Below are positions 1-46,087 of a DNA stretch of 64,000 nt, one piece after another. The notes under the pieces are model-generated. The model saw nothing but the letters and a program-made list of their open reading frames with translations. It was not told the origin of the DNA and made no database searches. The stretch is from the NCBI GenBank assembly GCA_024402405.1, contig JAKSTW010000001.1, positions 77,190-141,189 of the forward strand, written 5' to 3'. The stretch comes from Spirochaetia bacterium (GTDB lineage Bacteria; Spirochaetota; Spirochaetia; CADAEX01). The first letter of the stretch is position 1. Every line of letters begins with the position of its first letter. A program made the position numbers and the translations under genes.

Positions 1-720
1 CCCGGCTATTATCAGATGCACATCAGATGCCCCTTCCACATGTTTCTTGAATCTGATGAAAGCCTCCACAAGCCGCTTCACATTTTTATGAGGACGCAAT
101 TCGCCCAGATACAGAAAATAAGGTTTATCCAGATTGAATTTTTTGAATATCTCTTTATTCTCAGCCATACTGACAGTGGCACCTTCATAAATAACTCTGG
201 TCTTCTCATCCAGCCCTTTCACTCCTGGAAATTTTTTCAGAAGATCATTTTTTGTGGACTTGGAGACTGCAATCAATTTCTCACAGCATGATGCGGCATT
301 ATGCATCAGTTTTCTGAGATATAATGACTTGGCAGCACCTTTGGAACCCATATATTCCGGATGCACAATATATTTCAGATCATGGATCGTCACCATCTGT
401 TTTCCCTTGAAGAAAAGAGGATGGTTTGAATAAAGACAGTGAAAAAGATCACATGAAAATTCTTTTCTGTACTTCCAGAAAAGAAGATCGCGCTTCAGCC
501 CTATGGCAGGAATATCTTTTCTGAGCAGTCTGGCATTGGGATGCCTTTTTATCATCTCCACAAAAGGATGATTCTCCACAACAGATGTATTTATCATGAC
601 AGTAAAATCCATATCCACAGGTGCGGCAGAAAGAAGCGGATCCAAAAGTTCATGAATATACTGACCTACTCCGGTCTTTCCATTCTCCACCGCCAGTGCA
701 TCTAAAAGCAAATGTCTCAT
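1..720 (-). CDS. Glycosyltransferase family 4 (GT1-fold), N-terminal ~240 aa; 3' end beyond window start
   Basis: Not in ORF track because it runs off the window edge. Manual minus-strand translation from ATG (complement of 718-720) gives MRHLLLDALAVENGKTGVGQYIHELL...KPYFLYLGELRPHKNVKRLVEAF, a GT4 retaining-glycosyltransferase pattern (start of the C-terminal Rossmann domain). ATG overlaps the TGA of the upstream gene (ATGA). Confidence 0.55.
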   Translation of the reverse strand, partial: MRHLLLDALAVENGKTGVGQYIHELLDPLLSAAPVDMDFTVMINTSVVENHPFVEMIKRHPNARLLRKDIPAIGLKRDLLFWKYRKEFSCDLFHCLYSNHPLFFKGKQMVTIHDLKYIVHPEYMGSKGAAKSLYLRKLMHNAASCCEKLIAVSKSTKNDLLKKFPGVKGLDEKTRVIYEGATVSMAENKEIFKKFNLDKPYFLYLGELRPHKNVKRLVEAFIRFKKHVEGASDVHLIIAG

Positions 721-1538
721 TTTATTCTCCTGAACTGTCTGAAAAAATATCTTATCCTTCTGGAATTCTTTATTCCATTGGCAAAATTCTTAAAAACCCG
801 GCTTCTCCGTTTCAGACCGCGATAAAATTCAATGACCGCATAAACAGGACCTTTCCGAAGTCCGGCTTTTCCCAGCCAGTTTTCCTGATTCAGCTCAAAC
901 CGGCCTGAGATAGTCTCCTGAAAATCTTTATTCTGCGGTATGCACACCGGTTTGATACCATAGATCCTTATATCAATTCCCATTCTGTTCCCGGTAAGCC
1001 AGTCCGCAGGCATACGGATAGGATATCCACATTCCAGAAGTTTCTCAGCTCCGCTGAGTCTTATCAGATATCCGCTGGTCCAATTAGGATGCTCAACAAA
1101 TTTCACCAGTTTATACTGATTCCAGACCGGCAGCTTATCCCAGACTGAGCACACAGCATTATTATGTGAGAAGAAAACCAGCTCCCAGTCTTTTGGAAAA
1201 GTTCCTTTTCTTGACAGGATCTCCTTGAAATCCTGATCCAGTATGACATCATCCTCGAGTATCAGCGCCTCGGGAATTTTCTCAGACACCATTTTCTCAT
1301 AAATTTTAAGATGACTCCAGGAACAGCCTATTTCTCCCCGGGTAAGTTCCCGATGGAAAAAATTTATGGCTGCCTTTGAATCATAGGCTGCATCGATTTC
1401 ACTTTGCGGAAGTTTTCTGCCGTCAACTGCATTGAAAATCTCATATTTCAGTCCAAGTTTCTCCAGCTGTTCCGCTATGAATTCTCTTCTGTCAGCAGAA
1501 GACTCCAGATTGACTACAAATATTACTGGCTGCTTCAT
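717..1538 (-). CDS. Glycosyltransferase family 25 (LPS/LOS-type galactosyltransferase-like)
   Basis: 273-aa ORF; N-terminus PVIFVVNLESSADRREF matches the GT25 (Lic2A/LgtB-like) V-I-N-L...RR signature. Overlaps neighbours by 4 nt on both sides. Confidence 0.6.
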   Translation of the reverse strand: MKQPVIFVVNLESSADRREFIAEQLEKLGLKYEIFNAVDGRKLPQSEIDAAYDSKAAINFFHRELTRGEIGCSWSHLKIYEKMVSEKIPEALILEDDVILDQDFKEILSRKGTFPKDWELVFFSHNNAVCSVWDKLPVWNQYKLVKFVEHPNWTSGYLIRLSGAEKLLECGYPIRMPADWLTGNRMGIDIRIYGIKPVCIPQNKDFQETISGRFELNQENWLGKAGLRKGPVYAVIEFYRGLKRRSRVFKNFANGIKNSRRIRYFFRQFRRIK

Positions 1539-2203
1539 ATCATTTCCTTAAGATCGACAGGAGCAGGATCATGATCTTCCAGCAGAAATTCTCTCTTTTC
1601 TCTGCTCCACTGTTTATATCCATGAGTCAAGGCATTTTTTCCATAAAAAGTCTTCAGGACGCTGTCATCTGCCGGAACTGGAAAATCTCTGTCATAAAAT
1701 TTTTCTTTTCTCAGCGGATAAACAGAACTTTTAGGATAAATACGCCGTATATTCTTTGTGACAAACACAATATCATCACCTTCCACATCGCCCCAGATCA
1801 TATCCACATGGAGAGAATTCTTATGGCTGAACTTCAGTTTCAAGCACTCAGGCTTCTCTTCCAGAACATAAGATCTTCCCTGGAGCTTCTTCTCCAGAGC
1901 AGCCAGAACCAGATTTCTGTCCCTGCGCATGACACCGATATCGCCATCAGTTTCCCAGGGAATCAGTCCATGGTGGCGGACTATTCCCAGCTGCGTCCCT
2001 ATGATGGCAAACCATTCTATGCCAGCCTCAGATAACACCTCTGAAAGAAAAACCAGCAGCTCATACAGATGGGTGACACAGCAGGCCGGAGAATTTTTTC
2101 CTCGCCGTTCCCAGTAAAAATTGACGCTGAATGGATTCTCATCACATCTGGCAGTATCTGCTGTACAGACTTTATCCCGCCTGAAAAAAAATATATATCG
2201 CAA
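1535..2203 (-). CDS. licD: LicD-family phospho-alcohol (phosphocholine/ribitol-phosphate) transferase; start codon uncertain
   Basis: Frame contains LYELLVFLSEVLSEAGIEWFAIIGTQLGIVRHHGLIPWETDGDIGV, a match to the LicD core (GTLLGAVRH...DDDID). The track ORF extends to a GTG at 2413 that would overlap the upstream Wzx gene by 150 nt, and no ATG is in frame. A TTG at 2203 is a possible start. A second frame with a TTG at 2238 meets this frame at an A8 tract (2184-2191). Confidence 0.5.
   Translation of the reverse strand: MRYIFFFRRDKVCTADTARCDENPFSVNFYWERRGKNSPACCVTHLYELLVFLSEVLSEAGIEWFAIIGTQLGIVRHHGLIPWETDGDIGVMRRDRNLVLAALEKKLQGRSYVLEEKPECLKLKFSHKNSLHVDMIWGDVEGDDIVFVTKNIRRIYPKSSVYPLRKEKFYDRDFPVPADDSVLKTFYGKNALTHGYKQWSREKREFLLEDHDPAPVDLKEMI
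2184..2191. repeat. A8/T8 homopolymer at the junction of two overlapping minus-strand reading frames in the 5' part of licD (1535..)
   Basis: Seen directly (ctgAAAAAAAAtat). On the minus strand, T8 encodes FF-S in the 2017..2238 frame and FFF in the LicD frame. One extra T would join the frame with a TTG at 2238 to the LicD frame. Confidence 0.8.
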
Positions 2204-2262
2204 TAATAATCTGAAAAGCAGAGTAAAGCCCTTCTCAACTCTGCGGATAAATTTTCTCAAAA

Positions 2263-3705
2263 TCACTGTCTCCTGATAATTCTCAATAAATATCCTAAAC
2301 TTTCCAGCCGGAAAAGAAAAGCCAGACCGAAATAAACCAACATTCCCACAGCAGTCTGAAGCACCATGGTCAGGACAGATCCCAGCCCGAAAAATCTCAT
2401 ACCCACTATGCACAATCCCATGACAGCAGATAAAACCACAGATGGAAATACATCCATAAGCTGCTGATGAATACTGTAATTTATATACCGGCTGTTAGGC
2501 AATGTGCTTATGATCACAGAAATCAATGTAGCCAGTGCATCTAGAATCACTATGGCTTTCAGACTTCGGAACCAGAAAGCAGCCACACAGAATCCTGCCA
2601 CGCAGATGATCTTCTTTATTGTCTCAAATTTAAGCAGTGTACCGCCATAACCCATAGCCTTCAGAACCTGCATATTGGCTGTCTGAATAGGCCAGAAAGC
2701 AAACTTGACACATGCCCACTGAAGGAAAAACACACATGGAAGCCATTTTTCCGTAAGCAGCAGAAGTACCAGCGGTCTGGCAACTATAGCCAGCCCCACC
2801 ATAGCAGGAACCACAAAAAAACAGCTGGTGACAATAGAACGCCGCACCATCTCCTTCAGCCGTTCACGGTTGTCCTGATATGCTGCAAAAGCAGGGAACA
2901 TGACTGACTGGATGGAACCATCCAGATTGGAGACTATAAACTGCGGAAACGTCATACCTTTGCTGTAGATTCCCAAGTCAGCTGAAGAGAATGTCTTTCC
3001 GATCACCAGACTGCAAAGATCGTTATATGCAAAATTAAGAACTGAGGCAAAGAAAGTGTTCACACCAAAGGAAAACAGTTTTTTTATCCTGGTAAAAGAG
3101 AACATCAGCTTCGGCCGCCACTTTATAAGCCAGAACATAATGGCACATGAAACGATATAGCTGACGATCTTCTGCCATACCAGCGCCCACACACCGAATC
3201 CATGATAGGCCATCCAGATACCGATCAAAGCAGAAATCAGCACTGAACTTATGACGATCTTGAAAGATTTTTTGAACTGCATATTTTTTGACAGTATGGC
3301 ATCCTGAATGGAATTCACAGTTCCGATAAAGATTATCACAGAGAGCACCCGCAGTACGGACTGAATCTCCGGTATTCCATAAAATCTGGAAATCCCCGGT
3401 GCCAGGAACCACAGCACAGCATAACATAATCCTGCAATTCCAAGTCCGAAATAGAATACAGATGAAAAATCAAGCTCATCTGCATCCTGCTTCTGGATCA
3501 GCGCCACAGAAAATCCGTTTTCTATGAATGTGATCACAATATCAATAAAAACCCTGGCCAGAACAACGATACCGAAATCTCTGGGCAGAAGGAGTCTAGC
3601 AAGAATTATGGAAATGACAAAAGTGATTCCTTTCTTTCCGATCCTCTCAAAGAGCTTCCAGATAAGAGATGATATAATTTTTGCTTTATTTATATTATCA
3701 CTCAT
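2263..3705 (-). CDS. wzx: Wzx-type polysaccharide flippase (MOP/PST family polysaccharide biosynthesis protein)
   Basis: 480 aa, ~12-14 predicted TM helices, typical PST-family N-terminus (KGITFVISIILARLLLPRDFG) and length. Confidence 0.65.
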   Translation of the reverse strand: MSDNINKAKIISSLIWKLFERIGKKGITFVISIILARLLLPRDFGIVVLARVFIDIVITFIENGFSVALIQKQDADELDFSSVFYFGLGIAGLCYAVLWFLAPGISRFYGIPEIQSVLRVLSVIIFIGTVNSIQDAILSKNMQFKKSFKIVISSVLISALIGIWMAYHGFGVWALVWQKIVSYIVSCAIMFWLIKWRPKLMFSFTRIKKLFSFGVNTFFASVLNFAYNDLCSLVIGKTFSSADLGIYSKGMTFPQFIVSNLDGSIQSVMFPAFAAYQDNRERLKEMVRRSIVTSCFFVVPAMVGLAIVARPLVLLLLTEKWLPCVFFLQWACVKFAFWPIQTANMQVLKAMGYGGTLLKFETIKKIICVAGFCVAAFWFRSLKAIVILDALATLISVIISTLPNSRYINYSIHQQLMDVFPSVVLSAVMGLCIVGMRFFGLGSVLTMVLQTAVGMLVYFGLAFLFRLESLGYLLRIIRRQ

Positions 3706-3710
3706 CGGTT

Positions 3711-4418
3711 TCAGGAGACAGGCTCAAACCGCCCATCCTTTTTATTTACCTCTGCTATATTGCCAGCCATGGTATCGTCCCAATAAACACATGGGACAGT
3801 CCAGCTTTTTCCATACAAAGACTCGAGAAATTTCTCAGGTTCTGCCGGAGCAGGAATATTCATCCCTTTGAAATCAATACACTTCAAACCTGTATTCTTC
3901 CAGCTGAGCCTGATGGCATTCAATCTATTAGACTCATCTTTCAGATATGACCAGCACCAGATCTCATTCTCATTCCTGCTGAATACAAAAAGATCAAAAT
4001 GAATCTGCCCGTTAGAATATTTCTCCACAAAACCCTCATTGGGTATGCGGCTGTCTGCCATATAATATCTGTATTTTTTCTCAAAACCAATTTCCCGGAA
4101 CTTCCATGCCAGCTGTGAATAATATTGATCAGAGAAAACACCAAATTCCAAATCAAAATCATGCTTTATAAAATCATGTTCACGGACAGCCCCCAGCAAG
4201 GTTCCGAAACAGATGAAATAATCGATTCCCAGCTCATCGAATTTTTTTATGATAGCAGGAAAAAATTTATCGACCTGACTATGAAAAACCTGGGCTTTCT
4301 CAAGCTGCTTTTTTACAGCTTTTTTCTTTTTTGCAGCCATAAACAGCTTTTCTGTCACCGGATTGCTTTTCAGCAGTTTTTTCATTCCACAGTAAATCTT
4401 ATTCTCATAAATACTCAT
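3711..4418 (-). CDS. LicD-family protein (divergent; DFDLEF in place of DDDID)
   Basis: 235 aa; YFICFGTLLGAVREHDFIKHDFDLEF resembles the LicD nucleotidyltransferase-fold motif. Confidence 0.5.
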   Translation of the reverse strand: MSIYENKIYCGMKKLLKSNPVTEKLFMAAKKKKAVKKQLEKAQVFHSQVDKFFPAIIKKFDELGIDYFICFGTLLGAVREHDFIKHDFDLEFGVFSDQYYSQLAWKFREIGFEKKYRYYMADSRIPNEGFVEKYSNGQIHFDLFVFSRNENEIWCWSYLKDESNRLNAIRLSWKNTGLKCIDFKGMNIPAPAEPEKFLESLYGKSWTVPCVYWDDTMAGNIAEVNKKDGRFEPVS

Positions 4419-4735
4419 ACAATAATCCTGTCAAAAAAACAGTTTAAACAGTTCCCTGAATTCACGGCGCATTATACCCACAATGCGCTGCCACTGATAT
4501 CCCACATCACCCAGCTTCCTGCTGATACGCATCTTTGCAGTCTTTGAGAATCCGCTGCCGTCAGTATAAACAATGCGTCTTCCGGAACTATTATATTTTG
4601 TTCCCCATGCCGCATCTGTCCTGAAAAGAAGCTCATTACCGTCAGCAGCAGACTTTTCAGAAATAATTCTGTATCCGCAGGTATTGGTGTTGTAAAAGCA
4701 ACATTTTTAACTCAGCAGTTTTCTGAAATACTCAA

Positions 4736-5734
4736 TTACCCCCCCCCTTCACCAACAATCACTTCTTCAGACCATACACTGTCATTCTTGACCATGAGTT
4801 TCTGTTTTCCCTCCAGGGTCTCAGTATAATAGAATCTGTCACTTATATATGCCCAGATATCGTAAGTGCTGTAAATAAAATTATCAACACCCCGGTAATG
4901 ATAGATATCCTCAACCACCAGTTCACGCCTGAATGACAAATCCAGAAGCGGCACACCATCTGTATCAACTTTTTTACCATGCCATTGTGCCACAGTCGGG
5001 AAAATATCCAGCAGAGAGCAGATATTCTGAACTTTATCTACCTGCTTATCGCCCCTGTTATGAATAAACAGCGTTATATTTGTCCGAATAGGACTGACAT
5101 AGGCAAATCTATCACCATTCCTCACATGATCGCCTTTCAGCATACATCCATGATCGGAGAAGATCACAATTTTATCAAAAAAATCATTTCCGACAGCATC
5201 CAGCAGCATATCCATGCATCTGAAAAGATGTTCCTGACCTACAGCATCAGCCTCATCATGGCTTACCACAGAGCCGCAGGAATAAATATCAACAGCATCA
5301 TGATAATCATCAAAACCAGCATAGACACACAGGTCATCATTTCTGTCATTTCCAGCCTTGTCTATGAGAGTCTTATAATCAAAGACGATCTCCGCATAAC
5401 GGTCAAAACCAAATGGAACAATTCCTTCTTTCGGACTGAAAGAATATGGCGAGGCATAATAATAATTTTTATATCCCTCAGATGCCAGGAATTTAAAAAT
5501 ATTATTTTTTTCTGCATCCATAAAATAATATGGCCACTGACCGCACTTTGTGCATCCATTCTCCGCAGGATAGAGACCAGTATAAAAACATGCCATTGCC
5601 CGCGGTGTCTCAGGAGCCGGAGTATAAGCTGATGTATACCAGGTACCTCCCAGACGGCTGAATATCTTATAGACTGCTCCATTCTCAACTTTATCAGGCC
5701 GGAGCATATCACAGAAGAAAAAAAGAATTTTCAT
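4736..5734 (-). CDS. Alkaline-phosphatase-superfamily enzyme, type-I phosphodiesterase/NPP-like (soluble; no signal peptide or TM)
   Basis: 332 aa; ILFFFCDMLRPD resembles the NPP metal-site motif (SFDGFRADY); TGLYPAENG resembles NPP TGLYPESHG; SDHG metal-binding motif present (IVIFSDHGCML). C-terminus ...GEGGG is encoded by a G9 tract that directly abuts the stop codon. Confidence 0.5.
   Translation of the reverse strand: MKILFFFCDMLRPDKVENGAVYKIFSRLGGTWYTSAYTPAPETPRAMACFYTGLYPAENGCTKCGQWPYYFMDAEKNNIFKFLASEGYKNYYYASPYSFSPKEGIVPFGFDRYAEIVFDYKTLIDKAGNDRNDDLCVYAGFDDYHDAVDIYSCGSVVSHDEADAVGQEHLFRCMDMLLDAVGNDFFDKIVIFSDHGCMLKGDHVRNGDRFAYVSPIRTNITLFIHNRGDKQVDKVQNICSLLDIFPTVAQWHGKKVDTDGVPLLDLSFRRELVVEDIYHYRGVDNFIYSTYDIWAYISDRFYYTETLEGKQKLMVKNDSVWSEEVIVGEGGG
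4739..4747. repeat. C9 (G9 on coding strand) homopolymer encoding the terminal Gly residues of CDS 4736..5734, directly abutting its stop codon
   Basis: Seen directly: ...attaCCCCCCCCCttcacc; coding strand reads GGT GAA GGG GGG GGG TAA. Confidence 0.85.
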
Positions 5735-6948
5735 TTACCGCTCCCGGATTTTTTCTTTTTCCAGATAACATTGTTATACATAAACCAATTATATGGCAAT
5801 ACCAGAAATATAACAGAACCTATCATGGAGAGCTGTCTTACCAGCACATTGTCTGCAAATATACGGGTAAAAACGCCTACCACACCAAATTCTATGATGA
5901 TGGCACCCATGGAAGTAAGATTGAATCTCAGAAACCGCAGGAATATATTATCTTTTCTCTGAAAATTCTTCTTCGAGAAAGTCCAGCAGTTGTTCAGAAT
6001 GAAATTACTGCAGATACTGAGCTCTGTAGCCAGACCGGCAGCCCAGGCAGATGCACTGCAGAGAAGCCGACAGTTTTCAATCCGTCCGCGGAACCAGGAA
6101 GCAATGCTCTCACCTGATCCAGCCCGGAAAACCTCAAGGAAAATGGCATTGACCAGAAAACCGATAAACCCGACTATGGCAAATTTCATAAACCTGACAG
6201 TTCCAGGATCTTTCAGACGAAGAAGACACACTGTCTTAAGGATCTCAAAAGGAGTCTGTCCTGTGATTTTTGACACTCCTTCCTCGCGAAGTTTGAAATC
6301 CAGCGGAATCTCTTTGACCTTTGCACCGGCCTTGATTTTCTTAAAGAGCCATTCCAGCTTATAACCGAATCCCCTTGAATATACATGCTCATAATCAACT
6401 TTATTCAGCAGAGTTGTCCTTGTGGCCTTAAGCCCGGTAGTCGGATCCGTGACCTTAAAAAAATCTTTTGTAGGGAAGAACAGGATGACCCGGGCTGTAA
6501 AACCACCGGCTACAGTGAAAAACATCCGTTTGAATCCCCAGGAAGCAGGAAACCCGCCGCCCTTGACCCGTCTGGAACCAAGAATATAGTCATAGCCATT
6601 ATCCAGTTCTTTCAGCAGTAAAGGAATCGTCTCAGGGGGATGCTGGAAATCACCGTCAAATTCAATAACAGCATCTGCACCAAGTTTATCCACAGCATAT
6701 TTAAATCCTTTGATATAGGCTGCGCCGATCCCTTCTTTCTTCTGCTCCACCAGCAGTTCAAGATCGGGATAAGATTTCTGTTTTTCCCTGACCACATCAG
6801 ATGTACCATCAGGTGAATTTCCATCCACCACCAGCACCTTCACATTCCAGCCATCCACCGGTAATATCTTCTGGAAAAGATGATCTGCCATCCTGGCAAT
6901 GGAATCTTTCTCATTATATGTAGGAATAACTATTACTGCTTTTTCCAT
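5731..6948 (-). CDS. Polyprenyl-phosphate glycosyltransferase (GT2, DPM1/ArnC-like) fused to a C-terminal GtrA-like membrane domain
   Basis: 405 aa; N-terminus VIVIPTYNEKDSI...VVDGNSPDGT is GT2 family (DXD); the C-terminal ~120 aa has 4 TM helices typical of GtrA. Confidence 0.6.
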   Translation of the reverse strand: MEKAVIVIPTYNEKDSIARMADHLFQKILPVDGWNVKVLVVDGNSPDGTSDVVREKQKSYPDLELLVEQKKEGIGAAYIKGFKYAVDKLGADAVIEFDGDFQHPPETIPLLLKELDNGYDYILGSRRVKGGGFPASWGFKRMFFTVAGGFTARVILFFPTKDFFKVTDPTTGLKATRTTLLNKVDYEHVYSRGFGYKLEWLFKKIKAGAKVKEIPLDFKLREEGVSKITGQTPFEILKTVCLLRLKDPGTVRFMKFAIVGFIGFLVNAIFLEVFRAGSGESIASWFRGRIENCRLLCSASAWAAGLATELSICSNFILNNCWTFSKKNFQRKDNIFLRFLRFNLTSMGAIIIEFGVVGVFTRIFADNVLVRQLSMIGSVIFLVLPYNWFMYNNVIWKKKKSGSGK

Positions 6949-12004: not shown

Positions 12005-12448
12005 TTATGGTCTTACAACATCTCCATTGACGATCTTTATGACCTGGGTCGTGGAAATGCCCTGTGTACGAGGAACCACGATCACACGCCCCTGCCTGTA
12101 CAGATGACCGAACCAGTATTTCACATATTCCATATCATCTGCGGCAATGAAAAGAGCATCTATTCTGTACTTATCCATAAAATCATTGACTGCCTTCTCA
12201 TCATAGGCATGAGGTCCCCAGCTGCGGTCCACAATAACTGCATCATCCACATATCTGCAGGATCTGATTATTTCCAGCCGCTCTTCCTGAGAGAATATCG
12301 GTCTTCTTTTTTCCTGTTCTGTGAGAGCATCGGAATCAATGGTAGCCACAACTTCTCTGAACATTTCCTTGGCCCGTTTAAGGAGCCTCACATGACCTAC
12401 ATGAAAAAGGTCAAAAACTCCATTCACAGCACATCTGTCGTATTTCAT
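12005..12448 (-). CDS. tagD: Glycerol-3-phosphate cytidylyltransferase (GCT/TagD family; CDP-glycerol synthesis)
   Basis: 147 aa; GVFDLFHVGHVRLL (HxGH), RYVDDAVIV and PRTQGISTT motifs match TagD/GCT-family cytidylyltransferases. Confidence 0.65.
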   Translation of the reverse strand: MKYDRCAVNGVFDLFHVGHVRLLKRAKEMFREVVATIDSDALTEQEKRRPIFSQEERLEIIRSCRYVDDAVIVDRSWGPHAYDEKAVNDFMDKYRIDALFIAADDMEYVKYWFGHLYRQGRVIVVPRTQGISTTQVIKIVNGDVVRP

Positions 12449-27015: not shown

Positions 27016-27049
27016 TTTTCCTCCTGTCTTTTATTTTAATCTTTTATTT

Positions 27050-28516: not shown

Positions 28517-28523
28517 ACAAACC

Positions 28524-33794: not shown

Positions 33795-33818
33795 TCCAAT
33801 TATGATCCTAAAGTATAA

Positions 33819-38223: not shown

Positions 38224-39196
38224 AAATATGTTTCCTTATAAAGTTTTTTATAGGAACAGGTATCATTCTTTTTATTTTCATCTTCAGAAGATTGACAGGA
38301 TCATATCTGAAAAGGATTTTCTCAATTTCTGCGCTTATTCTGCGGATCTTTTTCAGATTTTCATGGGTACTGTTTTTACGGTCACCATTATACATCTGGC
38401 AGAATTTTCTTCCCAGCAGTCCTATATGTGTACCGGCAAGACCATGTTCCTCATAGTATGATACTATCATACTGAATACAGACAACCTTGGGGCAGCTAC
38501 TTTATCTCTGCATCCCATTATTGAATTTGCCCTCTGCCGATATTTATAAAAATATTTATCAAGATAATATCCATACTGAATATTCACAGCATAGCAATAA
38601 AAGAAATAATTATCTTCCAGAATGTATCCGTCTGGGAATCGCAGATTCAGTTTCTTCAGCACAGAAGCCCTGAAAAGTTTATTCCATACAGTAACTGTGG
38701 TATCAAAAATAACATCATCTGTCATTTTCTGCTTGCCGGAAAATTTCATAGCATGATATTTTTTTTCACCTGTCACCCGAGGATGATCGCCAGGCAGATC
38801 ATCAGATACGATCTCAGCGCCAAAACAGACCAGGTCTATTTCTTTATCTTTCTTAAATTCATATAAAACTCGCTCATATGTATCAGGATCGATCCAGTCA
38901 TCAGAGTCTATAAAACCGATATATTCTCCGGAGGCAAGTTCAAGTCCAGCATTACGTGCTACAGACACGCCGCCTTTTTCCAGATCTACAATTTTGATAC
39001 GCTTATCACATCTAGCATATTCTTTCAGAATTTCCAGGGAATTATCTGTGGAACCATCATTAACACAGATTATTTCTATCTTATGGAAGGTCTGATTCAC
39101 CACACTGTCCAGACACTGGCGAAGATATTTCTCAACATTATAGACAGGAATTATCACTGATATCAAAGAACCATTATCTGCATTCATATAACTCAA
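38216..39196 (-). CDS. GT2-family glycosyltransferase
   Basis: 326 aa; LISVIIPVYNVEKYLRQCLDSVVNQTFHKIEIICVNDGSTDNS...FIDSDDW. Confidence 0.75.
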   Translation of the reverse strand: MSYMNADNGSLISVIIPVYNVEKYLRQCLDSVVNQTFHKIEIICVNDGSTDNSLEILKEYARCDKRIKIVDLEKGGVSVARNAGLELASGEYIGFIDSDDWIDPDTYERVLYEFKKDKEIDLVCFGAEIVSDDLPGDHPRVTGEKKYHAMKFSGKQKMTDDVIFDTTVTVWNKLFRASVLKKLNLRFPDGYILEDNYFFYCYAVNIQYGYYLDKYFYKYRQRANSIMGCRDKVAAPRLSVFSMIVSYYEEHGLAGTHIGLLGRKFCQMYNGDRKNSTHENLKKIRRISAEIEKILFRYDPVNLLKMKIKRMIPVPIKNFIRKHIFG

Positions 39197-41196
39197 TTAT
39201 TAATATCGGCAGGATTCCATTCAAGATGCAGCTTAACAATCTGGCCATTCTTAACTTTTTTCGTATATGCGAATGGCTCATCATGCCATACTATCTTGCC
39301 ATCTTGCACTATATTCTCATCATCAACTGTGAAATCAGTATAATTTATATAGACAGGAACCCGTTTATTGTCTGCATTCCGTACATCTTTTCCACGCAAT
39401 GTAATCTTCAGGTTGCCATCATGTCTGCATTTTATTTCTATATCTATATTTCCAGCATTACTTTCTATCACAGTTCCAGTTCCCTTGGCATCTGCAAACC
39501 ACTTTGGAGTATCTGTTCTTGCCGTTTTATCAGAAATACTGATTATCTTGACAGAATTTGAGGCATTTCCATAATTCTTTATGTCTATCCTACCAATGCT
39601 TTGATAAGCATCAGTAAATCTTTGCTCAGTATTTATATCAGACAAAATATACTGTTCTGAACACCAAACAGACAACCTATCAAGTTTATCTGCTTTTACC
39701 GAATCAGGAATCTTTTCTATCTTTTTATTTGAATAAAATAAAATTCTTCCGCCGTCAATCAAATCATAAGCATCTTCAATGGATTTAATGATATAAACCT
39801 CATTGGTATCTTTCAAATATGGAATGATCATACCCAATTTCCACTTTTCATCAGATAAAAGTACAATTTTATTTATGGCATCAGATTTTAAAAATTCCAG
39901 TTTATCGATTTTAGCAGCATCCAGATAATCAATATTCCTGCTGTTGGCATGAACAGGGAATGTACAGCATACCAATATAATGGTCGATATCATTCCAGCT
40001 ATGGTACCAAGGTCTATTCTCTCATTTTTTGCAGTATAAATCAAAGCAAATATAGGTATAGCAGGTGCCACATACCGTCCGGTTTTATATGGTGCCAGGA
40101 ATAGTGCAAATATATAAAACAGCAAAAGTCCACATGAAAACAGCAGAACACCACAATTTTCAGCTCTATTTTTCCTGCATAAAATTAAAATCAGATATAC
40201 GAAATTAATACACCAAAGCAATTTAAGCCATACATTGTTAAAGGTATAGATTTTCAATAAATTATAACATGTTTTTTTAAAGTTACCTGTCAGGTCATGT
40301 CCGGAAAGCTTCTGAAAGGCCGCTGTGCCTTGATATACAAAGAAACCGGAACCATAATCCCAGTATATAATCTTGGCAACCGCAAATCCAAGCAACAGAG
40401 CACCAAACATAAACAGGAGCATATCATATCGTTTATGAACGATCGTCTTTATAACCAGTATCAATCCCAGGATTCCAATATAAATCAGGGAAAAATAACC
40501 TGTCAGAAGAGTCAGTCCGATACACAGTGCACTGACCAGCATATTTCTGACATTGATGACAGGCTCATTGTTATCCACTGCCTTATAAAAGGCAAAATAA
40601 AGATATGTAAACAGGATGAACATCGTCTCCTGCAGTGGATATGGGCGCAGGAAAAGGGATGATGATATTGTCAGCGGATAAAAAAAAGCCACACACAGCC
40701 CTATAAGCACGGCCTTATCCGATGTGGTCAACTCGCACAGCAAGGCACACATCAGATAAAACGATAACATAAAAAACAGCAGATTCAGCAGGAATCCGAT
40801 CCTGATGATACAATGATAATCGCTGGTTTTTATTCCGGTGAAACACAGTCTGAACAGGCTGTAATAAAAATTAGTATGGGGAGTGTCTGGATTATTGTTC
40901 CAAAGAATTTTCAGGTCATGTAATGTATCACGTTTGCTGTCGGAATCAAACAGAAACATTTCCTTTAGCTGGGAACCAGAATATTTCTTTCCACACAATT
41001 CATCAAATGGTTTATAAAATTCATCATTATGGTTTGATATGACAACGCTGAGCCACTCATCCAGATGCAGACTCTTCTTGTTGTCACACCAGCACACCCG
41101 GCACAACATCTGAAGTATGAAGATAACCAGCAGGTAATAGAAGAATTTTTTGTTCTGTGTTCTTTTTTTTATTGTACTGTAAGGATGGATAATCAT
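39193..41196 (-). CDS. Polytopic membrane protein, putative GT-C-fold glycosyltransferase/polymerase, with a ~120-aa C-terminal extracytoplasmic domain shared with the lipoprotein at 46215..48326
   Basis: 667 aa; ~12 TM helices with an early HLDEW (DE-type) motif as in ArnT/PMT-like GT-C enzymes; C-terminal soluble domain RIDIKNYGNASNSVKIISI...WHDEPFAYTKKVKNGQIVKL. Confidence 0.35.
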   Translation of the reverse strand: MIIHPYSTIKKRTQNKKFFYYLLVIFILQMLCRVCWCDNKKSLHLDEWLSVVISNHNDEFYKPFDELCGKKYSGSQLKEMFLFDSDSKRDTLHDLKILWNNNPDTPHTNFYYSLFRLCFTGIKTSDYHCIIRIGFLLNLLFFMLSFYLMCALLCELTTSDKAVLIGLCVAFFYPLTISSSLFLRPYPLQETMFILFTYLYFAFYKAVDNNEPVINVRNMLVSALCIGLTLLTGYFSLIYIGILGLILVIKTIVHKRYDMLLFMFGALLLGFAVAKIIYWDYGSGFFVYQGTAAFQKLSGHDLTGNFKKTCYNLLKIYTFNNVWLKLLWCINFVYLILILCRKNRAENCGVLLFSCGLLLFYIFALFLAPYKTGRYVAPAIPIFALIYTAKNERIDLGTIAGMISTIILVCCTFPVHANSRNIDYLDAAKIDKLEFLKSDAINKIVLLSDEKWKLGMIIPYLKDTNEVYIIKSIEDAYDLIDGGRILFYSNKKIEKIPDSVKADKLDRLSVWCSEQYILSDINTEQRFTDAYQSIGRIDIKNYGNASNSVKIISISDKTARTDTPKWFADAKGTGTVIESNAGNIDIEIKCRHDGNLKITLRGKDVRNADNKRVPVYINYTDFTVDDENIVQDGKIVWHDEPFAYTKKVKNGQIVKLHLEWNPADINN

Positions 41197-43217
41197 AACA
41201 GCCTTTTTATTTTTTTTCTTACTTTTTTGCAGAATAATTTGACTGTATATATGAAACCATGCTGTTTGATGCAGCGCAGACCGCCTTTGAACTTTTTAAC
41301 TAACTTTTTAACCAAATAAAAATATTTGCTTGTCAGGAAAAAATATTTTCTAATAAAATTTTTATAATTCTTATCATTTTTAATTTTATGTTCCAGGAAC
41401 ATGCTACCGTGACTAGCGTCAATATATTCTAATATATTTTTCATAAAAATATCATTTTTATTTTCGGTAACATTACTTTTCCACAAAGCAGTTTCTTGTG
41501 TTTCTGGAATATATCGTAATTTACGCGCTGGATAACAATTTACTACAGGAATATTATTCATAACCTCTATCATTTTCAGCCATAAATCATCCGCAGCTAA
41601 ACACAAATGAGAAATCAATTCTTTATTATAATATTCGGATTTCATCAACTCCACTGGATATAAACACCCACCGACACCAGTTGCCAGTAATGCCATAGAT
41701 GGTATATTTAAACAATAATCATAACTATGAACCCAATCATTATAAGATTTTATTGATCCGTCTTTATTAAAGAGCATCAGATGAGTTCTCAATGTACTTA
41801 TACAATCAGGATGCAATAGATATGAAATATACAAAGATTCCAATAATTTATTATCATATAGAATATCGTCGTCAACTGTAACTACTAAATCTTTTGGATA
41901 TTTATGAAATGCATAAAAATATTTATTATGTGGACGTAAATTATCATCATACCAATGTATTTCAACTTGTTTTGAATCAACTAATGTAAGTAATGTTTTT
42001 GGCAAATTTTTTCCACTATTCTCAAATTCAGATCTTACCAAACACAAAATTATCTTATCTGCCTTATAAGTCTGATTAATAATTGCCGTCAATACAAAAT
42101 GTATACCATCTATTCTTGCAGGATATGTAGTTAAAGAAACAATTAATTTTTTATTTCTTAATTTTTGAATACATTCATATGTATTATTTTTTAATATTAA
42201 GAACTTATAATATTTTAGTTTATCACCAATCAAATCTTCTGATAAAGAAATAAATTCTGAAGTATTAAATTTTTTATGTATTGCATCATAAAAAGGTTTC
42301 ACAACATCAGCGTTAAAATCAGGACAATTATTTTCCAACCCGTAAATATAATTATCAATTATAAAACGATAAAGTGATATTTTTATTTTATTAAAATAAG
42401 GTAATTTTTTTATTTGTGCTTCTGCACTTTCTAATGCCTTTACAATATTCATTATGTTCTTTGCTTTTGTAGAAGTAATAGTGCCAGCTTGACCCCATCT
42501 ATATCTATAGAATTTTTCCGTTGTGTAACTTATTCTTTTCGCTCTTGCCAAAGCAACAGCAGCAAAAGTAATATCATTTTGCGTAGATATAGGTTCAAAA
42601 TACAAATTATTATTTCGAATGAAAGAAGCATTAAAAAGTTTGTTCCATGGCGTAGGATTTATTGTCTGCAAAATATTTTTAGGACAGTCTTTATAATTAA
42701 ATACATTATTTTTTTTATTAATTCTTTTGGGATTTATTTCTGTCCTATCAATTTCAGTACCATCTTCAAAAAATTTTACTCCGTTAAAGGCAACTATATC
42801 AGCTTTATTTTTATCTGCTAATTCCACTGTTTTTGCAAGCAAAAATTCAGAACATAAATCATCTGAATCCATAAAATATACATACTCACCTTTTGCCACA
42901 GTAAATCCTGCATTACGAGCAACACCAGCATGTAAATTTTCTTGGGTTATAACGGTAATTCTATTATCTTTTTTCGCATATTCTCTTAATATTTCTAATG
43001 AACTATCTGTAGAACCGTCATCCACGCAGATGATTTCTATTTCCTGCAAGGTCTGATTCACCACACTGTCCAGACACTGGGGCAGATACTCAGCTGTATT
43101 ATACACAGGAATAATTACTGATACTTTCGGAGTATAACCAATTTTATTTTGAATTAAAATTTTTGCAGTTGTATCTGGATCACCATTAGCATTGTGCACT
43201 AAAATTTTTTCTGTCAT
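41193..43217 (-). CDS. Two-domain glycosyltransferase (N-terminal GT2 + C-terminal second DXD-type GT domain)
   Basis: 674 aa; N-term VSVIIPVYNTAEYLPQCLDSVVNQT...FMDSDD (GT2); the second half begins KLIVSLTTYPARIDGI...VTVDDDILY, a separate GT-A-like module. Confidence 0.6.
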   Translation of the reverse strand: MTEKILVHNANGDPDTTAKILIQNKIGYTPKVSVIIPVYNTAEYLPQCLDSVVNQTLQEIEIICVDDGSTDSSLEILREYAKKDNRITVITQENLHAGVARNAGFTVAKGEYVYFMDSDDLCSEFLLAKTVELADKNKADIVAFNGVKFFEDGTEIDRTEINPKRINKKNNVFNYKDCPKNILQTINPTPWNKLFNASFIRNNNLYFEPISTQNDITFAAVALARAKRISYTTEKFYRYRWGQAGTITSTKAKNIMNIVKALESAEAQIKKLPYFNKIKISLYRFIIDNYIYGLENNCPDFNADVVKPFYDAIHKKFNTSEFISLSEDLIGDKLKYYKFLILKNNTYECIQKLRNKKLIVSLTTYPARIDGIHFVLTAIINQTYKADKIILCLVRSEFENSGKNLPKTLLTLVDSKQVEIHWYDDNLRPHNKYFYAFHKYPKDLVVTVDDDILYDNKLLESLYISYLLHPDCISTLRTHLMLFNKDGSIKSYNDWVHSYDYCLNIPSMALLATGVGGCLYPVELMKSEYYNKELISHLCLAADDLWLKMIEVMNNIPVVNCYPARKLRYIPETQETALWKSNVTENKNDIFMKNILEYIDASHGSMFLEHKIKNDKNYKNFIRKYFFLTSKYFYLVKKLVKKFKGGLRCIKQHGFIYTVKLFCKKVRKKIKRLL

Positions 43218-43251
43218 ATTTACCTCAATATATTATTCATTTCTTCCGATA

Positions 43252-44778
43252 TCACAGACTGTCCCGATATTTTTTCACTGTTTCTCCGGGATCTCCATCA
43301 GCCATTATCTTTCCATGATCGAACCAGATCGCCCGCGTACATTCTTTTTCAACAAATCCCAGACTATGAGTAACCACGATCACGGCCTTGGCGTTTTTCA
43401 TCATGCAGTGAATGGTATCGCTGGCTTTTTTCTGGAAAGAAGCATCTCCAGCGCTGAGAGCTTCATCAATGATGAAAAGTTCAGGCTGGATCGCCGCAGC
43501 AATGCTGAATCCAAGTTTTGAACGCATTCCGCTGGAATAATTCTTCACTTCCTTATCCACATCTTTGCCCAGATCAGCAAACTCAAGGATCTGAGGGCGG
43601 AGTTCCAGCAGTTTTTTCTTAGGTATACCGATCATCATGCCATTAAGAAGAATATTGTCTGAAGCCGGAAGCTGCATATTGAATCCCGACCCCAATGACA
43701 GCAGAGCAGAGGTTTTGCCATCAACAGTAAGAGTTCCCTCATCAGGACGGTAAATACCGGTCAGCACACGGCAGAGTGTAGATTTCCCGGCTCCATTATG
43801 CCCGATGATACCTACAATATCCCCTTCTTTTATCTCAAAACTTACATTCCGCAGTGCCCAGAATTTATCTTTTCCGATCCTGAAGCAGATCCCCATAGCA
43901 GTCGCCTTAATGAAGGTTTTGGCATCAGATATTGGCATAGGTCCAGCAGGCACTTTTTTTATAACTTCCAGATTTTTTCTCACCACAGATGCCGGAGCAG
44001 GAACTTTCTTCTGCGGGATATAGCCTTTTCCATAAACAGATTCAAGGTATGCATCTGCAACTTTCTCAGGAGCCCCTTCTGACTTTATATATCCCTTGTC
44101 GATCCATATTGCCCTGGTGCAGCGAGATCTGACAAATTCCATATCATGAGTGACTATCACGATCATCCGGGCTTTTTTTATCAGCTCTTCCATTTTTGCG
44201 GCTGACTTCTGACGGAACCTTTCGTCTCCGGTGCTTAAAGTCTCATCCAGAACCAGTGTTTCAGGGGCCAGCATGGCAGCTATGCTGAATCCAAGGCGGA
44301 CACGCATACCGGAGGAATATTTTTTCAGAGGGATCCTGATAAATTCTCCAAGCTCTGAAAATTCCACTATCTCATTGAAATGCTGTCTCATCTCCCGGTG
44401 GGAAAATCCCATCATCATTCCATTGAGATAAATATTTTCTTCTCCTGTAAGCTCATTGTCAAAACCGGCACCAAGAGACAGAAGTGCAGATACATTTCCG
44501 TCTATGGAAAGTTTTCCGCGGTCAGGTCTCAGAAGATCACTCAGGATCCTGCACAGAGTGGTCTTCCCGGTGCCATTGGAACCGATAATGCCCAGAATTT
44601 CTCCGGCAAATCCTTCAAAGCTGATATCCTGAAGTATCCATTTTTTTCCTCTACCGGCTTTCTTTCCTTTGGCTATATTCAGCATCATGGAACGGAAATC
44701 ATCGCAGGTACGGTCTGCATAATAATAGAGAGCTAAATTCTGTGCATCGATTATTTTTTCAGGATCATCACTCATCAT
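43252..44778 (-). CDS. ABC-2-type polysaccharide/teichoic-acid exporter ATP-binding protein (TagH/Wzt/KpsT-like) with two tandem NBDs
   Basis: 508 aa; two complete sets of Walker A (GSNGTGKTT; GHNGAGKST), signature (YSSGMRVRLGFSIA; YSSGMRSKLGFSIA) and Walker B (LVLDETLS; FIIDEALS). Confidence 0.7.
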   Translation of the reverse strand: MMSDDPEKIIDAQNLALYYYADRTCDDFRSMMLNIAKGKKAGRGKKWILQDISFEGFAGEILGIIGSNGTGKTTLCRILSDLLRPDRGKLSIDGNVSALLSLGAGFDNELTGEENIYLNGMMMGFSHREMRQHFNEIVEFSELGEFIRIPLKKYSSGMRVRLGFSIAAMLAPETLVLDETLSTGDERFRQKSAAKMEELIKKARMIVIVTHDMEFVRSRCTRAIWIDKGYIKSEGAPEKVADAYLESVYGKGYIPQKKVPAPASVVRKNLEVIKKVPAGPMPISDAKTFIKATAMGICFRIGKDKFWALRNVSFEIKEGDIVGIIGHNGAGKSTLCRVLTGIYRPDEGTLTVDGKTSALLSLGSGFNMQLPASDNILLNGMMIGIPKKKLLELRPQILEFADLGKDVDKEVKNYSSGMRSKLGFSIAAAIQPELFIIDEALSAGDASFQKKASDTIHCMMKNAKAVIVVTHSLGFVEKECTRAIWFDHGKIMADGDPGETVKKYRDSL

Positions 44779-45551
44779 AAAGCCTTGACGATCTTATGCT
44801 CATTTTTATCAAAAAACCATAACAATCCCAGAATTGCAGCCACAGAGAAACCCATCAGAACAGCAAGAAGCCTGAAATCAGGGAATCTTCCATACATGAA
44901 TACATCTCTGTATGCCTGAAGCAGCCAGGCGATTGGATCATATCTGACCACCCACTGATATTTTTCAGGCAGAAATGTAACCTCCCATATTACAGGGGCA
45001 ATGAAATGAAGGATCATTATTATGTGTCCCACTACATTCTTAAAGTCCCGGATAAATATGCAGATATAGGAAAGGAACATGGCTATGGCCAGCTGGAACA
45101 GCAGTTGTACCAGAATGATCAGCGGCAGGCATACCAGCTGTATTCCCGGCATTCTGTGGAAAAACAGCATGAATCCCTCAACTATCAGAAGTCCGAACAG
45201 AAAGTTTATAGTCTGGGACAGAGTAGTTCCCACCGCAAAAATAGCCTTGGGCAGATAGACCTGGGTTATTATTCCGCTGTGGGACAGAATGGCATTGCAG
45301 GACATGCTTACTGTGGTGCTGAAATACCTGAACACGATCATTCCGACAACAAGAAACGGTGAATAATCAGGAGAGCCGCGTTTCATTATCACAGCTACAA
45401 GAAAATAATAAATCAATATATTCAGAAACGGATCCAGCAGCCACCATAAATAACCAAGCGCCGTGTTTCTGTTCTCTGCCTTCAATCCGGTGACCACCAG
45501 ATAGGAAACCAGATCTTTTCGCTTCCACATCTCCTTCATATATCTGATCAT
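44775..45551 (-). CDS. ABC-2-type exporter permease (TagG/Wzm/KpsM family)
   Basis: 258 aa, 6 TM helices; YLWWLLDPFLNILIYYFLV is the ABC-2 family signature region. Confidence 0.7.
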   Translation of the reverse strand: MIRYMKEMWKRKDLVSYLVVTGLKAENRNTALGYLWWLLDPFLNILIYYFLVAVIMKRGSPDYSPFLVVGMIVFRYFSTTVSMSCNAILSHSGIITQVYLPKAIFAVGTTLSQTINFLFGLLIVEGFMLFFHRMPGIQLVCLPLIILVQLLFQLAIAMFLSYICIFIRDFKNVVGHIIMILHFIAPVIWEVTFLPEKYQWVVRYDPIAWLLQAYRDVFMYGRFPDFRLLAVLMGFSVAAILGLLWFFDKNEHKIVKAL

Positions 45552-46087
45552 GATTCAATTCCTTTTCCGTCAATATTTCCTGTTATGTTCAGAATAAAAA
45601 GTTCTTCGATATCATGCCCTATGATAAAAATACAGGAATTTTTATCAGAAACCGAATCCACAAGTTCCAGTCTGTTTTTCAGACACATATATTCAGCAAT
45701 TCCGCGCAGAAAACTGGAAACAGGAATATAAACTTTCCGGATATCTTTCCCAGCCTGCTGATAAATTATCTTTTCCAGCAGCTCTGAATAATATCTCATT
45801 CTTGAATTAAATTCAGAGATCTCCAGCGCTGAATCTGCTTTCAGCATTCCGATACCAGCCTCTGTCAGCTGATAGCGCATATTACGGCTGTTGGTCTTTA
45901 TCAATCTGATAAGTCCATTTTTCTCCATATTCCGGAGAATGGCATTGATCATACCCAATGATAAGGATGCAGCATCTGCAAGCTCACGCTGCTTGATGGA
46001 GGAGTTTTTATAAATATGTCTGAGGATAACGGTTTCTTTAGTCACCAGTTCAAGATTCAGGGCATAATCTGCCCAGTGAAATGACAT
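45548..46087 (-). CDS. Winged-helix (MarR/PadR-like) transcriptional regulator; first gene of the minus-strand operon
   Basis: 179 aa; SIKQRELADAASLSLGMINAILRNMEKNGLI is an HTH; 127-bp promoter-type gap upstream (46088-46214) containing a TTGTTC-n7-GAACAA inverted repeat. Confidence 0.45.
   Translation of the reverse strand: MSFHWADYALNLELVTKETVILRHIYKNSSIKQRELADAASLSLGMINAILRNMEKNGLIRLIKTNSRNMRYQLTEAGIGMLKADSALEISEFNSRMRYYSELLEKIIYQQAGKDIRKVYIPVSSFLRGIAEYMCLKNRLELVDSVSDKNSCIFIIGHDIEELFILNITGNIDGKGIES

Follow-up and report, generated by a model that had tools for sequence, protein, structure and literature searches.

How spirochaetes that lack lipopolysaccharide (LPS) synthesize and export outer-leaflet glycolipids is the question raised by a locus in which genes of teichoic-acid type occur in a spirochaete genome. 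We analyzed a stretch of 64,000 nucleotides (the window) from a Spirochaetia bacterium (GenBank assembly GCA_024402405.1, contig JAKSTW010000001.1, positions 77,190 to 141,189). The open reading frame listing, together with Pfam and NCBIfam scans, revealed a dense surface-glycan locus over window positions 1-46087, which continues past the window start. We consider it probable, with some reserve, that the surface-glycan genes of this interval form one real and uninterrupted super-locus, which lies on the leading strand at a distance of 15-61 kb from the replication origin (oriC) of a gut-type, Treponema-lineage diderm, and that this super-locus is a mosaic of several pathways. This reading draws on gene families, synteny, catalytic-residue conservation, protein fold and taxonomy. 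The residual novelty lies in a conserved TagF-like/YidC-LtaS gene module and in its constant linkage to genes for envelope transport; otherwise the locus is a variable surface-antigen region of ordinary type, in a host-associated bacterium.

The organism belongs to the Treponema lineage of spirochaetes and is hence diderm, not a Firmicute. In a scan of a genome collection, the best relatives of its MetK were Treponema metagenome-assembled genomes (MAGs; 73% identity), and the locus itself encodes a porin-like barrel and a LolA-like protein. Some proteins of the window have exact counterparts deposited under assembly GCA_024500545.1. The diderm host presumed in the first-pass annotation, which was made from the sequence alone, agrees with these relatives, and its counter-case of a monoderm Firmicute falls with them. 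Nor is the window chimeric at the junctions examined, since separately built contigs reproduce them: Logan contigs L087, L088, L090 and L002 are 100% identical to the window across 24818-29229, 44859-48826, 33198-35743 and 58845-62977, respectively, and the LicD-radical SAM-GT2-fusion, GT2-Stealth-AlbA_2 and metK-CotH-MarR-TagG junctions are reproduced at 100% (GT2, glycosyltransferase family 2). Some of these contigs may share reads with the MAG, and they rule out a binning problem less securely than an assembler artefact. From 1 to 61 kb the GC skew stays negative; its sign flips at 61.0-61.5 kb, where a GC-poor gyrB-dnaA spacer with two perfect DnaA boxes is the probable oriC (Table 1); dnaN follows dnaA on the plus strand (62990-64000). 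The origin proximity and leading-strand co-orientation pointed out earlier are thereby borne out, and a high gene dosage might follow from the former. The origin-proximal placement is not conserved, because 23 spirochaete-type loci show no common synteny around metK.

Across 1-61 kb, where a near-gapless run of genes leads up to gyrB, 47 of the 49 genes lie on the minus strand. The "nearly fifty consecutive minus-strand genes" first attributed to 1-46087 therefore hold for the longer range, but not for that interval, which has 39 genes, all on the minus strand except one ABC ATPase (16196-16897). The many 4-nt overlaps noted at first sight were counted at 15 same-strand junctions within the interval; gaps of 127-136 bp and unrelated genes break up the run. 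Most of the 39 genes belong to glycan biosynthesis families in the Pfam and NCBIfam scans. The family scans covered the WecA-like protein at 51 kb and 40 proteins encoded in 1-48.4 kb, and negative results given below for scanned proteins refer to this set; for 48.4-51.1 kb and the part beyond 52.2 kb, only the translations were read. Rfam gave zero matches, and a promoter and terminator scan yielded about background level and was left unused.

The first-pass annotation had proposed a comparison of synteny with relatives, and four related spirochaete contigs of 84-445 kb (L084, L085, L086 and L092) made this possible. Synteny with all four MAGs extends over a core of about 20 kb (7.9-28.5 kb), and the flanks vary. 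The gene order is complete in L092 and, in the other three, retained as far as their sequence reaches, with protein identities of 40-85% to the relatives (measured in L084, L085 and L086). The L092 order runs from the radical SAM enzyme through GT2, YidC fusion, TagF-like protein, a 290-aa protein, two FtsX permeases, LolA-like protein, barrel and ABC ATPase (opposite strand) to the membrane protein, polyprenyl-phosphate glycosyl-1-phosphate transferase (PGT), Ugd, TagD-like, YidC-LtaS and TagF-like genes. L086 additionally keeps the left arm down to the GT4 gene at the window start; in L084 and L085, YfhO, Wzx-GT2 and PMT_2 genes stand in its place, and in L092 YfhO is present where the locus ends. 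The locus is thus a mosaic of a clade-conserved core and exchangeable, partly low-GC cassettes. Because its modules differ in GC content and conservation, several products are more plausible than one, and of the two outcomes first envisaged, one complex glycan or several, "several glycans" is the better reading.

The TagF-like/YidC-LtaS pair and the transport module

The two largest membrane proteins of the locus (9136-12000 and 23696-26269), absent from the first inventory, are fusions of a YidC core to an LtaS-type domain. In public records, both bear the name "YidC/Oxa1 family membrane protein insertase", which is probably a misannotation and is propagating. The YidC core of fusion 1 matches PF02096 with 82.6 bits against a cut-off of 35, and the N-terminal 215 residues match YidC both by sequence and by fold (Foldseek 6al2_B, 206 columns, root-mean-square deviation 4.0); the score against the YidC model TIGR03592, 79.4, falls just below its cut-off of 84.3. 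The groove arginine of Escherichia coli YidC, R366, aligns to T43, in a column that holds T in 27, N in six and S in one of 34 family members, and never R. The five-helix YidC-like core is followed by about eight further helices, for about 13 transmembrane (TM) helices in total, and then by a periplasmic domain of the alkaline-phosphatase superfamily. An AlphaFold2 model of fusion 1 (mean predicted local distance difference test score, pLDDT, 85.3) finds PbgA/YejM, MCR-1, EptA and LtaS as its best Foldseek matches, as well as YidC, and LtaS is also among the sequence matches. D578, T615, D848 and H849 are invariant in all 34 members and H783 is kept in 33, a set which we take to be the catalytic set of LtaS/EptA-type phosphotransferases. 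Membership of LtaS itself is a different matter, with 20.6 bits against a cut-off of 970 for the LtaS equivalog NF053595.

A 4-nt overlap joins each fusion gene to a TagF-like gene (product about 410 aa), and the two are translationally coupled. In the family alignment, the TagF-like proteins have one TM helix, a C-terminal domain and, in their N-terminal part, the invariant motif Y-[LI]-D-P-G-T-G-S. PF04464 exceeds its gathering score in both genes; TarF, the sole NCBIfam match, scores 16 against a cut-off of 550. A phmmer search of the Protein Data Bank (PDB) with a single TagF-like sequence gave no match, whereas a profile of eight homologues matched Cps3D (best), TagF and TarL there at E-values (E) of 5e-5 to 6e-4.

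The two-gene module also occurs elsewhere. In Treponema denticola (CP051634, 1309411-1332254, i.e. 1.309-1.332 Mb), a tandem array of at least four YidC fusions of about 900 aa and two TagF-like genes adjoins glycosyltransferase and nucleotide-sugar genes. In a deltaproteobacterium (LT599018.1; L091 8001-12400), the fusion and TagF-like genes again share a 4-nt overlap, and a TagD-like gene is found about 6 kb from them. The fusion protein there aligns with the family at full length, over 938 columns. No glycan locus surrounds this pair, whose neighbours are chemotaxis and flagellar genes. A literature search of incomplete coverage found no paper on a YidC-LtaS-TagF module, nor on Treponema glycerophosphotransferases or the function of TP0789.

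The transport module lies between the two TagF-like/YidC-LtaS pairs in L092, as it does here; in L084 and L085 it adjoins the downstream pair, and L086 shows its ABC gene only. The opposite-strand arrangement of the ABC ATPase is common to L084, L085 and L092. FtsX domains in two genes, a MacB_PCD domain and an ABC_tran domain correspond to a LolCDE-type ABC system with a MacB-like periplasmic domain. The adjacent LolA_like protein scores 16.7 against canonical LolA (PF03548), below the cut-off of 23.6, and LolB was not found among the scanned proteins. The AlphaFold2 model of the putative barrel (16894-18087) is all-beta, with about 20 strands and pLDDT 78-90 in its C-terminal half, and its top Foldseek matches are all outer-membrane (OM) porins or barrels (E 5e-5 to 1e-3) with modest TM-scores near 0.3. 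The mid-locus LolA-like/FtsX/LolD-like cluster and OM barrel predicted earlier are thus present (families within 16196-21603 and a porin-like model). The module could serve general lipoprotein and lipid traffic, or export of the locus product.

Gene content and flanking cassettes

Coordinates and family matches are collected in Table 1. Much of the first inventory was recovered: two Wzx flippases, two TagF-like enzymes, the Stealth phosphotransferase, the TagD-like gene, an IspD-like/short-chain dehydrogenase/reductase (SDR) CDP-polyol module whose IspD-like member exceeds the NCBIfam cut-off for ribitol-5-phosphate cytidylyltransferase, Ugd with an SDR epimerase that is UDP-uronate 4-epimerase-like only, and a TagG/TagH-type ABC exporter. 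Other entries shrank: eight proteins carry GT2, GT4 or GT25 domains instead of at least ten, and LicD-family genes number three instead of four, the fourth having been looked for in the interval and not found. One of the two initiators, the WbaP-like PGT, lies within the interval, but the WecA/TagO-like gene sits outside it on the plus strand. The "Wzy-like" (15003-16145) and "GT-C-like" (39193-41196) calls are unproven, with no curated family above cut-off for either. The former has 18 homologues, none of which carries a Pfam domain, and a Wzy or ligase role is possible but unproven. An aminotransferase-like role considered for the 289-aa core protein was set aside, as its NCBIfam matches are too weak to assign a function.

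Table 1. Features of the glycan locus and its surroundings, in window coordinates (HexNAc, N-acetylhexosamine; NBD, nucleotide-binding domain; GC3, GC at third codon positions; wHTH, winged helix-turn-helix).
Feature	Position	Strand	Evidence and remarks
GT4 glycosyltransferase, N-terminal part; gene runs off window start	1..720	-	Pfam Glyco_transf_4 + Glycos_transf_1; homologue 64% identical in L086
GT25 glycosyltransferase	717..1538	-	PF01755, E 4e-41
LicD-family phosphotransferase	1535..2266	-	PF04991, E 7e-11, N-terminal partial match above cut-off
Wzx-type flippase 1	2263..3705	-	Polysacc_synt_3 (PF13440), E 6e-95; 10 hydrophobic segments
LicD-family protein, weak, N-terminal match only	3711..4418	-	PF04991, 26.6 bits vs cut-off 22.6; NCBIfam Mf1-like E 4e-13, below cut-off
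Soluble sulfatase-superfamily protein, frameshifted near 4740	4437..5734	-	PF00884
GT2 fused to GtrA-type membrane domain (polyprenyl-phosphate sugar synthase type)	5731..6948	-	PF00535 + PF04138
SDR nucleotide-sugar epimerase, UDP-uronate 4-epimerase-like (putative substrate)	6933..7907	-	PF01370, E 2e-56; TviC-like E 4e-41, below cut-off
TagF-like polyol-phosphate transferase 1	7904..9139	-	PF04464, 39.5 bits vs cut-off 22.1
YidC-core/multi-TM/LtaS-EptA-type phosphotransferase fusion 1, 954 aa	9136..12000	-	PF02096 + PF00884
TagD-like cytidylyltransferase (putatively CDP-glycerol)	12005..12448	-	PF01467, E 6e-21; TIGR01518 E 2e-19, below equivalog cut-off
UDP-glucose 6-dehydrogenase (Ugd)	12450..13757	-	all three UDPG_MGDP_dh domains
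WbaP-like polyprenyl-phosphate hexose-1-phosphate transferase, initiator	13769..15013	-	PF02397, E 2e-61
Polytopic membrane protein, narrow distribution	15003..16145	-	no Pfam; 7 hydrophobic segments; NCBI start 16043
ABC ATPase (LolD/MacB type)	16196..16897	+	PF00005, E 3e-33
Predicted OM beta-barrel, 397 aa, signal peptide, C-terminal Phe	16894..18087	-	no Pfam; AlphaFold2 model + Foldseek
LolA_like (TP_0789-like) periplasmic carrier	18080..18862	-	PF17131, E 4e-34
Two FtsX/MacB-type permeases	18859..21603	-	PF02687 in both; PF12704 (MacB_PCD) in one
Conserved 289-aa protein, no assigned function	21591..22460	-	no Pfam; 68-69% identical in L084 and L085
TagF-like transferase 2	22470..23699	-	PF04464, 33.8 bits
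YidC-core/LtaS-type fusion 2, 857 aa	23696..26269	-	PF02096; all invariant catalytic residues kept in family alignment
GT2 glycosyltransferase	26266..27015	-	PF00535, E 1e-33
B12-binding radical SAM enzyme, HpnJ-like	27050..28516	-	PF04055 + PF02310; TIGR03471 E 9e-118, below cut-off
LicD-family phosphotransferase, full-length match	28524..29354	-	PF04991, E 3e-38, 132.9 bits
AAA_14/DUF4143 ATPase, non-glycan	29351..30577	-	Pfam scan
SDR	30714..31727	-	PF01370
Ribitol-5-phosphate cytidylyltransferase-like (IspD family)	31724..32440	-	PF01128; NF001183, 172.4 bits vs cut-off 166
AlbA_2/HATPase_c_4/Fic-like_C protein, non-glycan	32445..33794	-	Pfam scan
Stealth hexose-1-phosphate transferase	33819..34844	-	CR2 135 bits, CR1 42.7 bits; CR3, CR4 below cut-off; GC 0.33
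Two GT2 genes	34828..36781	-	Pfam scan
Wzx-type flippase 2	36781..38223	-	PF01943, E 2e-30
GT2 glycosyltransferase	38216..39196	-	Pfam scan
667-aa membrane protein, 9 hydrophobic segments, C-terminal domain of ~130 aa	39193..41196	-	no Pfam; LA_3751/2 family E 1e-7, below cut-off
GT2 with C-terminal half without family	41193..43217	-	GC 0.28, GC3 0.19
TagH-like ATPase, two NBDs, plus TagG/Wzm-type ABC-2 permease	43252..45551	-	NF010066, 359 bits vs cut-off 320; PF01061
MarR/wHTH regulator, head of locus	45548..46087	-	Pfam scan
CotH-family predicted lipoprotein, low GC, just outside interval	46215..48326	-	PF08757; 703 aa in L088
WecA/TagO-like polyprenyl-phosphate HexNAc-1-phosphate transferase, outside interval	51068..52150	+	PF00953, E 1e-40; TIGR02380 E 4e-42, below cut-off
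Probable oriC, 364-bp gyrB-dnaA spacer	61058..61421		GC 0.26, GC-skew sign change, two perfect DnaA boxes at 61237 and 61387

In the left arm, the GTG start of the first LicD gene was revised to 2266, which gives a 4-nt overlap with the Wzx gene. The last approximately 100 aa of the sulfatase-like gene (4437-5734) lie in another frame, 57% identical to the L086 homologue, and an apparent 317-bp intergenic gap is its displaced 3' end; the frameshift near 4740 marks either a pseudogene or a sequencing or consensus error of the MAG. At the right edge of the core, the HpnJ-like radical SAM enzyme adjoins a GT2 gene (26266-28516) inside the glycan locus, and the pair is kept in L092. In hopanoid biosynthesis, an HpnI/HpnJ pair makes the cyclitol ether.

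Beyond the core, the SDR and IspD-like genes (30714-32440) appear from their families to form a split Bcs1/TarIJ-type CDP-polyol module. Two non-glycan genes (29351-30577 and 32445-33794) sit between the glycan modules in the same orientation. Genes at 33.8-35.9, 38.2-43.2 and 46.2-48.4 kb have a GC content of 0.28-0.37, against mostly 0.39-0.46 for other genes of the interval. The two adjacent GT2 genes share a direct repeat of 284 nt (35555-35838 and 36498-36781; 92% identical) at their 5' ends and differ in their 3' halves, which suggests a recent duplication or gene conversion. For the membrane domain of the 667-aa protein there are hundreds of homologues, of which those tested show only weak DUF6056 and TgpA_N matches. 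The C-terminal domain of this protein, about 130 aa long (39193-39600) recurs in the CotH-family protein (46215-46620; 37% identity, E 3e-24, no Pfam match), and an exhaustive search found it in many other proteins, often in two to four copies; two of three scanned carry a GT2 domain, one of them also GT8. The GC content of the next gene (41193-43217) is far below that of the rest of the window, and the C-terminal 340 residues of its product match no family.

The TagH-like ATPase (43252-44778, 508 aa) has two complete nucleotide-binding domains without a C-terminal substrate-binding domain, and its score of 359 bits is a sum over the two. The CotH-family gene is positioned between the glycan locus and metK; with its start moved to M29, as in an independent contig, the protein has a lipoprotein-type (lipobox) N-terminus, MKRYLIFIIILTLLAVSC.

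What the locus may make

The gene families suggest a working scheme, in which the substrates, topology of action, products and number of distinct polymers are our proposals. The WbaP-like transferase would start an oligosaccharide on polyprenyl phosphate, Ugd and the epimerase would supply uronic acids, and GT2, GT4 and GT25 enzymes would extend the chain, after which Wzx would flip the uronic-acid-containing, lipid-linked oligosaccharide. CDP-glycerol, putatively made by the TagD-like enzyme, would be used by the two membrane-anchored TagF-like enzymes to add polyol phosphate on the cytoplasmic face. Their fusion partners may carry out a second, periplasmic phospho-transfer onto a lipid-linked or glycolipid acceptor, and the YidC-like groove may handle a lipid-linked intermediate instead of a nascent protein. 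LicD enzymes would add phospho-substituents, and the IspD-like/SDR pair, with a LicD-family gene nearby, would provide CDP-ribitol. The Stealth/GT2/second-Wzx cassette and the TagGH exporter, the latter under the MarR-like regulator, could serve separate, variable polymers.

Several points weigh against this reading of the locus. The TagD-like protein scores below TIGR01518, the WecA-like protein below TIGR02380 and the TagF-like proteins far below TarF, which leaves their substrates uncertain. Polymerisation, attachment and OM export are not accounted for in the window, because no Wzy, chain-length regulator, OPX/Wza, LytR-CpsA-Psr (LCP) ligase, TagA/TagB or KpsDESC was detected among the scanned proteins. 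Finally, the source is a MAG with one frameshifted gene, and some of the Logan contigs possibly derive from the same reads.

The alternative that survives best, unlikely as we judge it, is that the core makes an LPS-replacing, lipid-anchored OM glycolipid and that the embedded MacB-type ABC/LolA-like/barrel module is its dedicated, Lpt-like transporter. An extractor ABC, a periplasmic carrier for hydrophobic cargo and an OM barrel would suit a lipid-anchored cargo, and the placement of the module between or beside the gene pairs is kept in three of the relatives, with its ABC gene alone seen in L086. The lipooligosaccharide (LOS) of T. denticola, a species that has the TagF/YidC-LtaS array, has been described chemically since 1998. 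A review reports for this species no identifiable LPS pathway and a novel OM glycolipid (PMC3285142), which is anchored by diacylglycerol (PMC3285142, PMC3776326), and calls its LOS biochemically distinct from lipoteichoic acid (PMC3285142). The literature search, with its incomplete coverage, found no paper that assigns genes to T. denticola LOS or links the TagF-like/fusion array to it. Against a dedicated transporter, the sole link is gene adjacency, and neither the T. denticola array nor the deltaproteobacterial pair was seen to have the module within 10 kb. The Pfam family of the carrier is named for Treponema pallidum TP_0789, so that LolA_like occurs without this core and a general lipoprotein or lipid role is equally possible.

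A more far-reaching version is that this core of about 20 kb supplies the genes hitherto missing for the LPS-replacing OM glycolipid of treponemes, in which case the TagD-like/TagF-like/YidC-LtaS trio would build a polyol-phosphate, lipid-anchored glycan, the MacB-type ABC/LolA-like/barrel module would export it as an Lpt analogue, and the YidC-like domain would be a lipid-substrate groove and not an insertase. We regard this as a speculative and rather unlikely proposal. The trio also occurs in a deltaproteobacterium. The TagF-like/YidC-LtaS module, with its linkage to the transport module, offers a testable route to the genetics of treponemal OM glycolipids.

It is highly improbable that the whole 46 kb is one pathway for a single, very complex polymer. 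The co-orientation and the 15 four-nucleotide overlaps suggest long co-transcribed runs, and CDP-polyol suppliers and their LicD and TagF-like users are scattered over different blocks, as one pathway might have it. Two Wzx flippases, an ABC exporter and two different initiator types speak for separate products, however, as do strong GC differences between blocks, the unrelated genes and 127-136-bp gaps that interrupt the run, and the exchange of flanks for YfhO/PMT_2 blocks around a retained core in L084 and L085, with YfhO at the locus end in L092.

An ordinary wall-teichoic-acid (WTA) locus of a monoderm Firmicute, or a chimera of Firmicute DNA and a spirochaete origin region, is largely excluded and has next to no probability, even though the TagD, TagF, TagGH, LicD and LtaS-like families are typical of teichoic-acid biology and the source is a MAG: source-named homologues of the locus-specific proteins are mostly from Spirochaetia or Treponema, several spirochaete contigs of 84-445 kb show synteny with the core, GC skew is continuously negative over 1-61 kb, separately built contigs reproduce three internal junctions and the metK junction, the porin-like barrel and LolA-like genes lie inside the locus, and TagA, TagB and LCP families went undetected among the scanned proteins.

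Comparison with known systems

A mosaic of several pathways in a diderm spirochaete is less singular than it first appeared. The claim that such content is unusual for a diderm was overstated, given the core in four spirochaete MAGs, the T. denticola array and Gram-negative TagF-like precedents, and the surprise is largely explained by spirochaete biology and those precedents. Teichoic-acid-like polymers in diderms are already known and not new: in Gram-negative pathogens, the synthesis of teichoic-acid-like capsules by TagF-like polymerases is established (PMC5974469).

The locus resembles the WTA systems of Bacillus and Staphylococcus in its TagD-type cytidylyltransferase, TagF-family transferases, TagH/TagG-type ABC exporter and nearby WecA/TagO-type gene, and its relatives carry a GT2/GtrA/YfhO-type extracytoplasmic glycosylation system. 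YfhO lies directly beside the TagF/YidC-LtaS pair in L084, L085, L086 and L092, with a PMT_2 gene of the GT-C type a few genes beyond in L084 and L085. In Firmicutes, YfhO-type enzymes glycosylate teichoic acids outside the membrane. The locus differs from WTA systems in its diderm host, in TagF-like proteins that are short (about 410 aa), carry a TM helix and the N-terminal motif, and have a YidC/LtaS-type fusion as their coupled partner, and in a TagGH exporter that stands in a separate, variable block from the TagF-like genes. A TagO/WecA-type initiator (outside the interval, below the TIGR02380 cut-off) and TagGH are present, whereas TagA, TagB and LCP ligase were not detected (no match to the WecG/TagA and LytR_cpsA_psr families among the scanned proteins).

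With the TagF-like polymerases of Gram-negative group 2 capsules, the locus shares TagF-family polyol-phosphate transfer in a diderm, and Cps3D is the best PDB match of the profile. Those enzymes are large and multidomain and lie in kps loci with KpsMT, KpsDE and KpsSC, whereas the enzymes here are single-domain and membrane-anchored. No KpsD, KpsE, KpsS or KpsC was found among the scanned proteins, which include a weak KpsM-like match (E 1e-10, below cut-off) and the TagH/Wzt-type ATPase. For the Wzx/Wzy pathway, a PGT (PF02397) and Wzx proteins (PF13440, PF01943) are present, with no verified Wzy and neither a polysaccharide co-polymerase (PCP) chain-length regulator nor an outer-membrane polysaccharide export (OPX)/Wza protein among the scanned proteins. 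Because TagA/TagB/LCP, KpsD/E/S/C and a verified Wzy, PCP and OPX were not found among the scanned proteins, the locus does not qualify as a canonical WTA locus, a Kps capsule locus or a complete Wzy pathway.

Individual parts have closer counterparts. The split CDP-ribitol module combines IspD-family and SDR proteins as do Haemophilus influenzae type b Bcs1, where they are fused, and pneumococcal TarI/TarJ. Stealth enzymes are known from Gram-negative (Neisseria) capsules; the gene here is comparable in its CR1 and CR2 matches above cut-off and differs in lying in a low-GC cassette with its own Wzx. Like LtaS, EptA, MCR-1 and PbgA, the fusion proteins combine a TM region with a sulfatase-type domain that comes after it in the periplasm and has invariant Asp, Thr and Asp-His; unlike LtaS, with its five-TM N-terminal architecture, they have about 13 TM helices including the YidC-like core, and they fall outside the LtaS family. 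From YidC/Oxa1, whose five-helix core is recognisable in them by sequence and fold, they differ in the groove arginine (Thr, Asn or Ser in 34 of 34), in about 700 extra residues and in always standing beside a TagF-like gene. The T. denticola array has the same two-gene module near glycosyltransferase and nucleotide-sugar genes, there in tandem. The TagF-like/YidC-LtaS pair offers concrete knockout targets in the genetically tractable T. denticola, and the ABC/LolA-like/barrel module provides further targets in the gut treponemes that carry the core.

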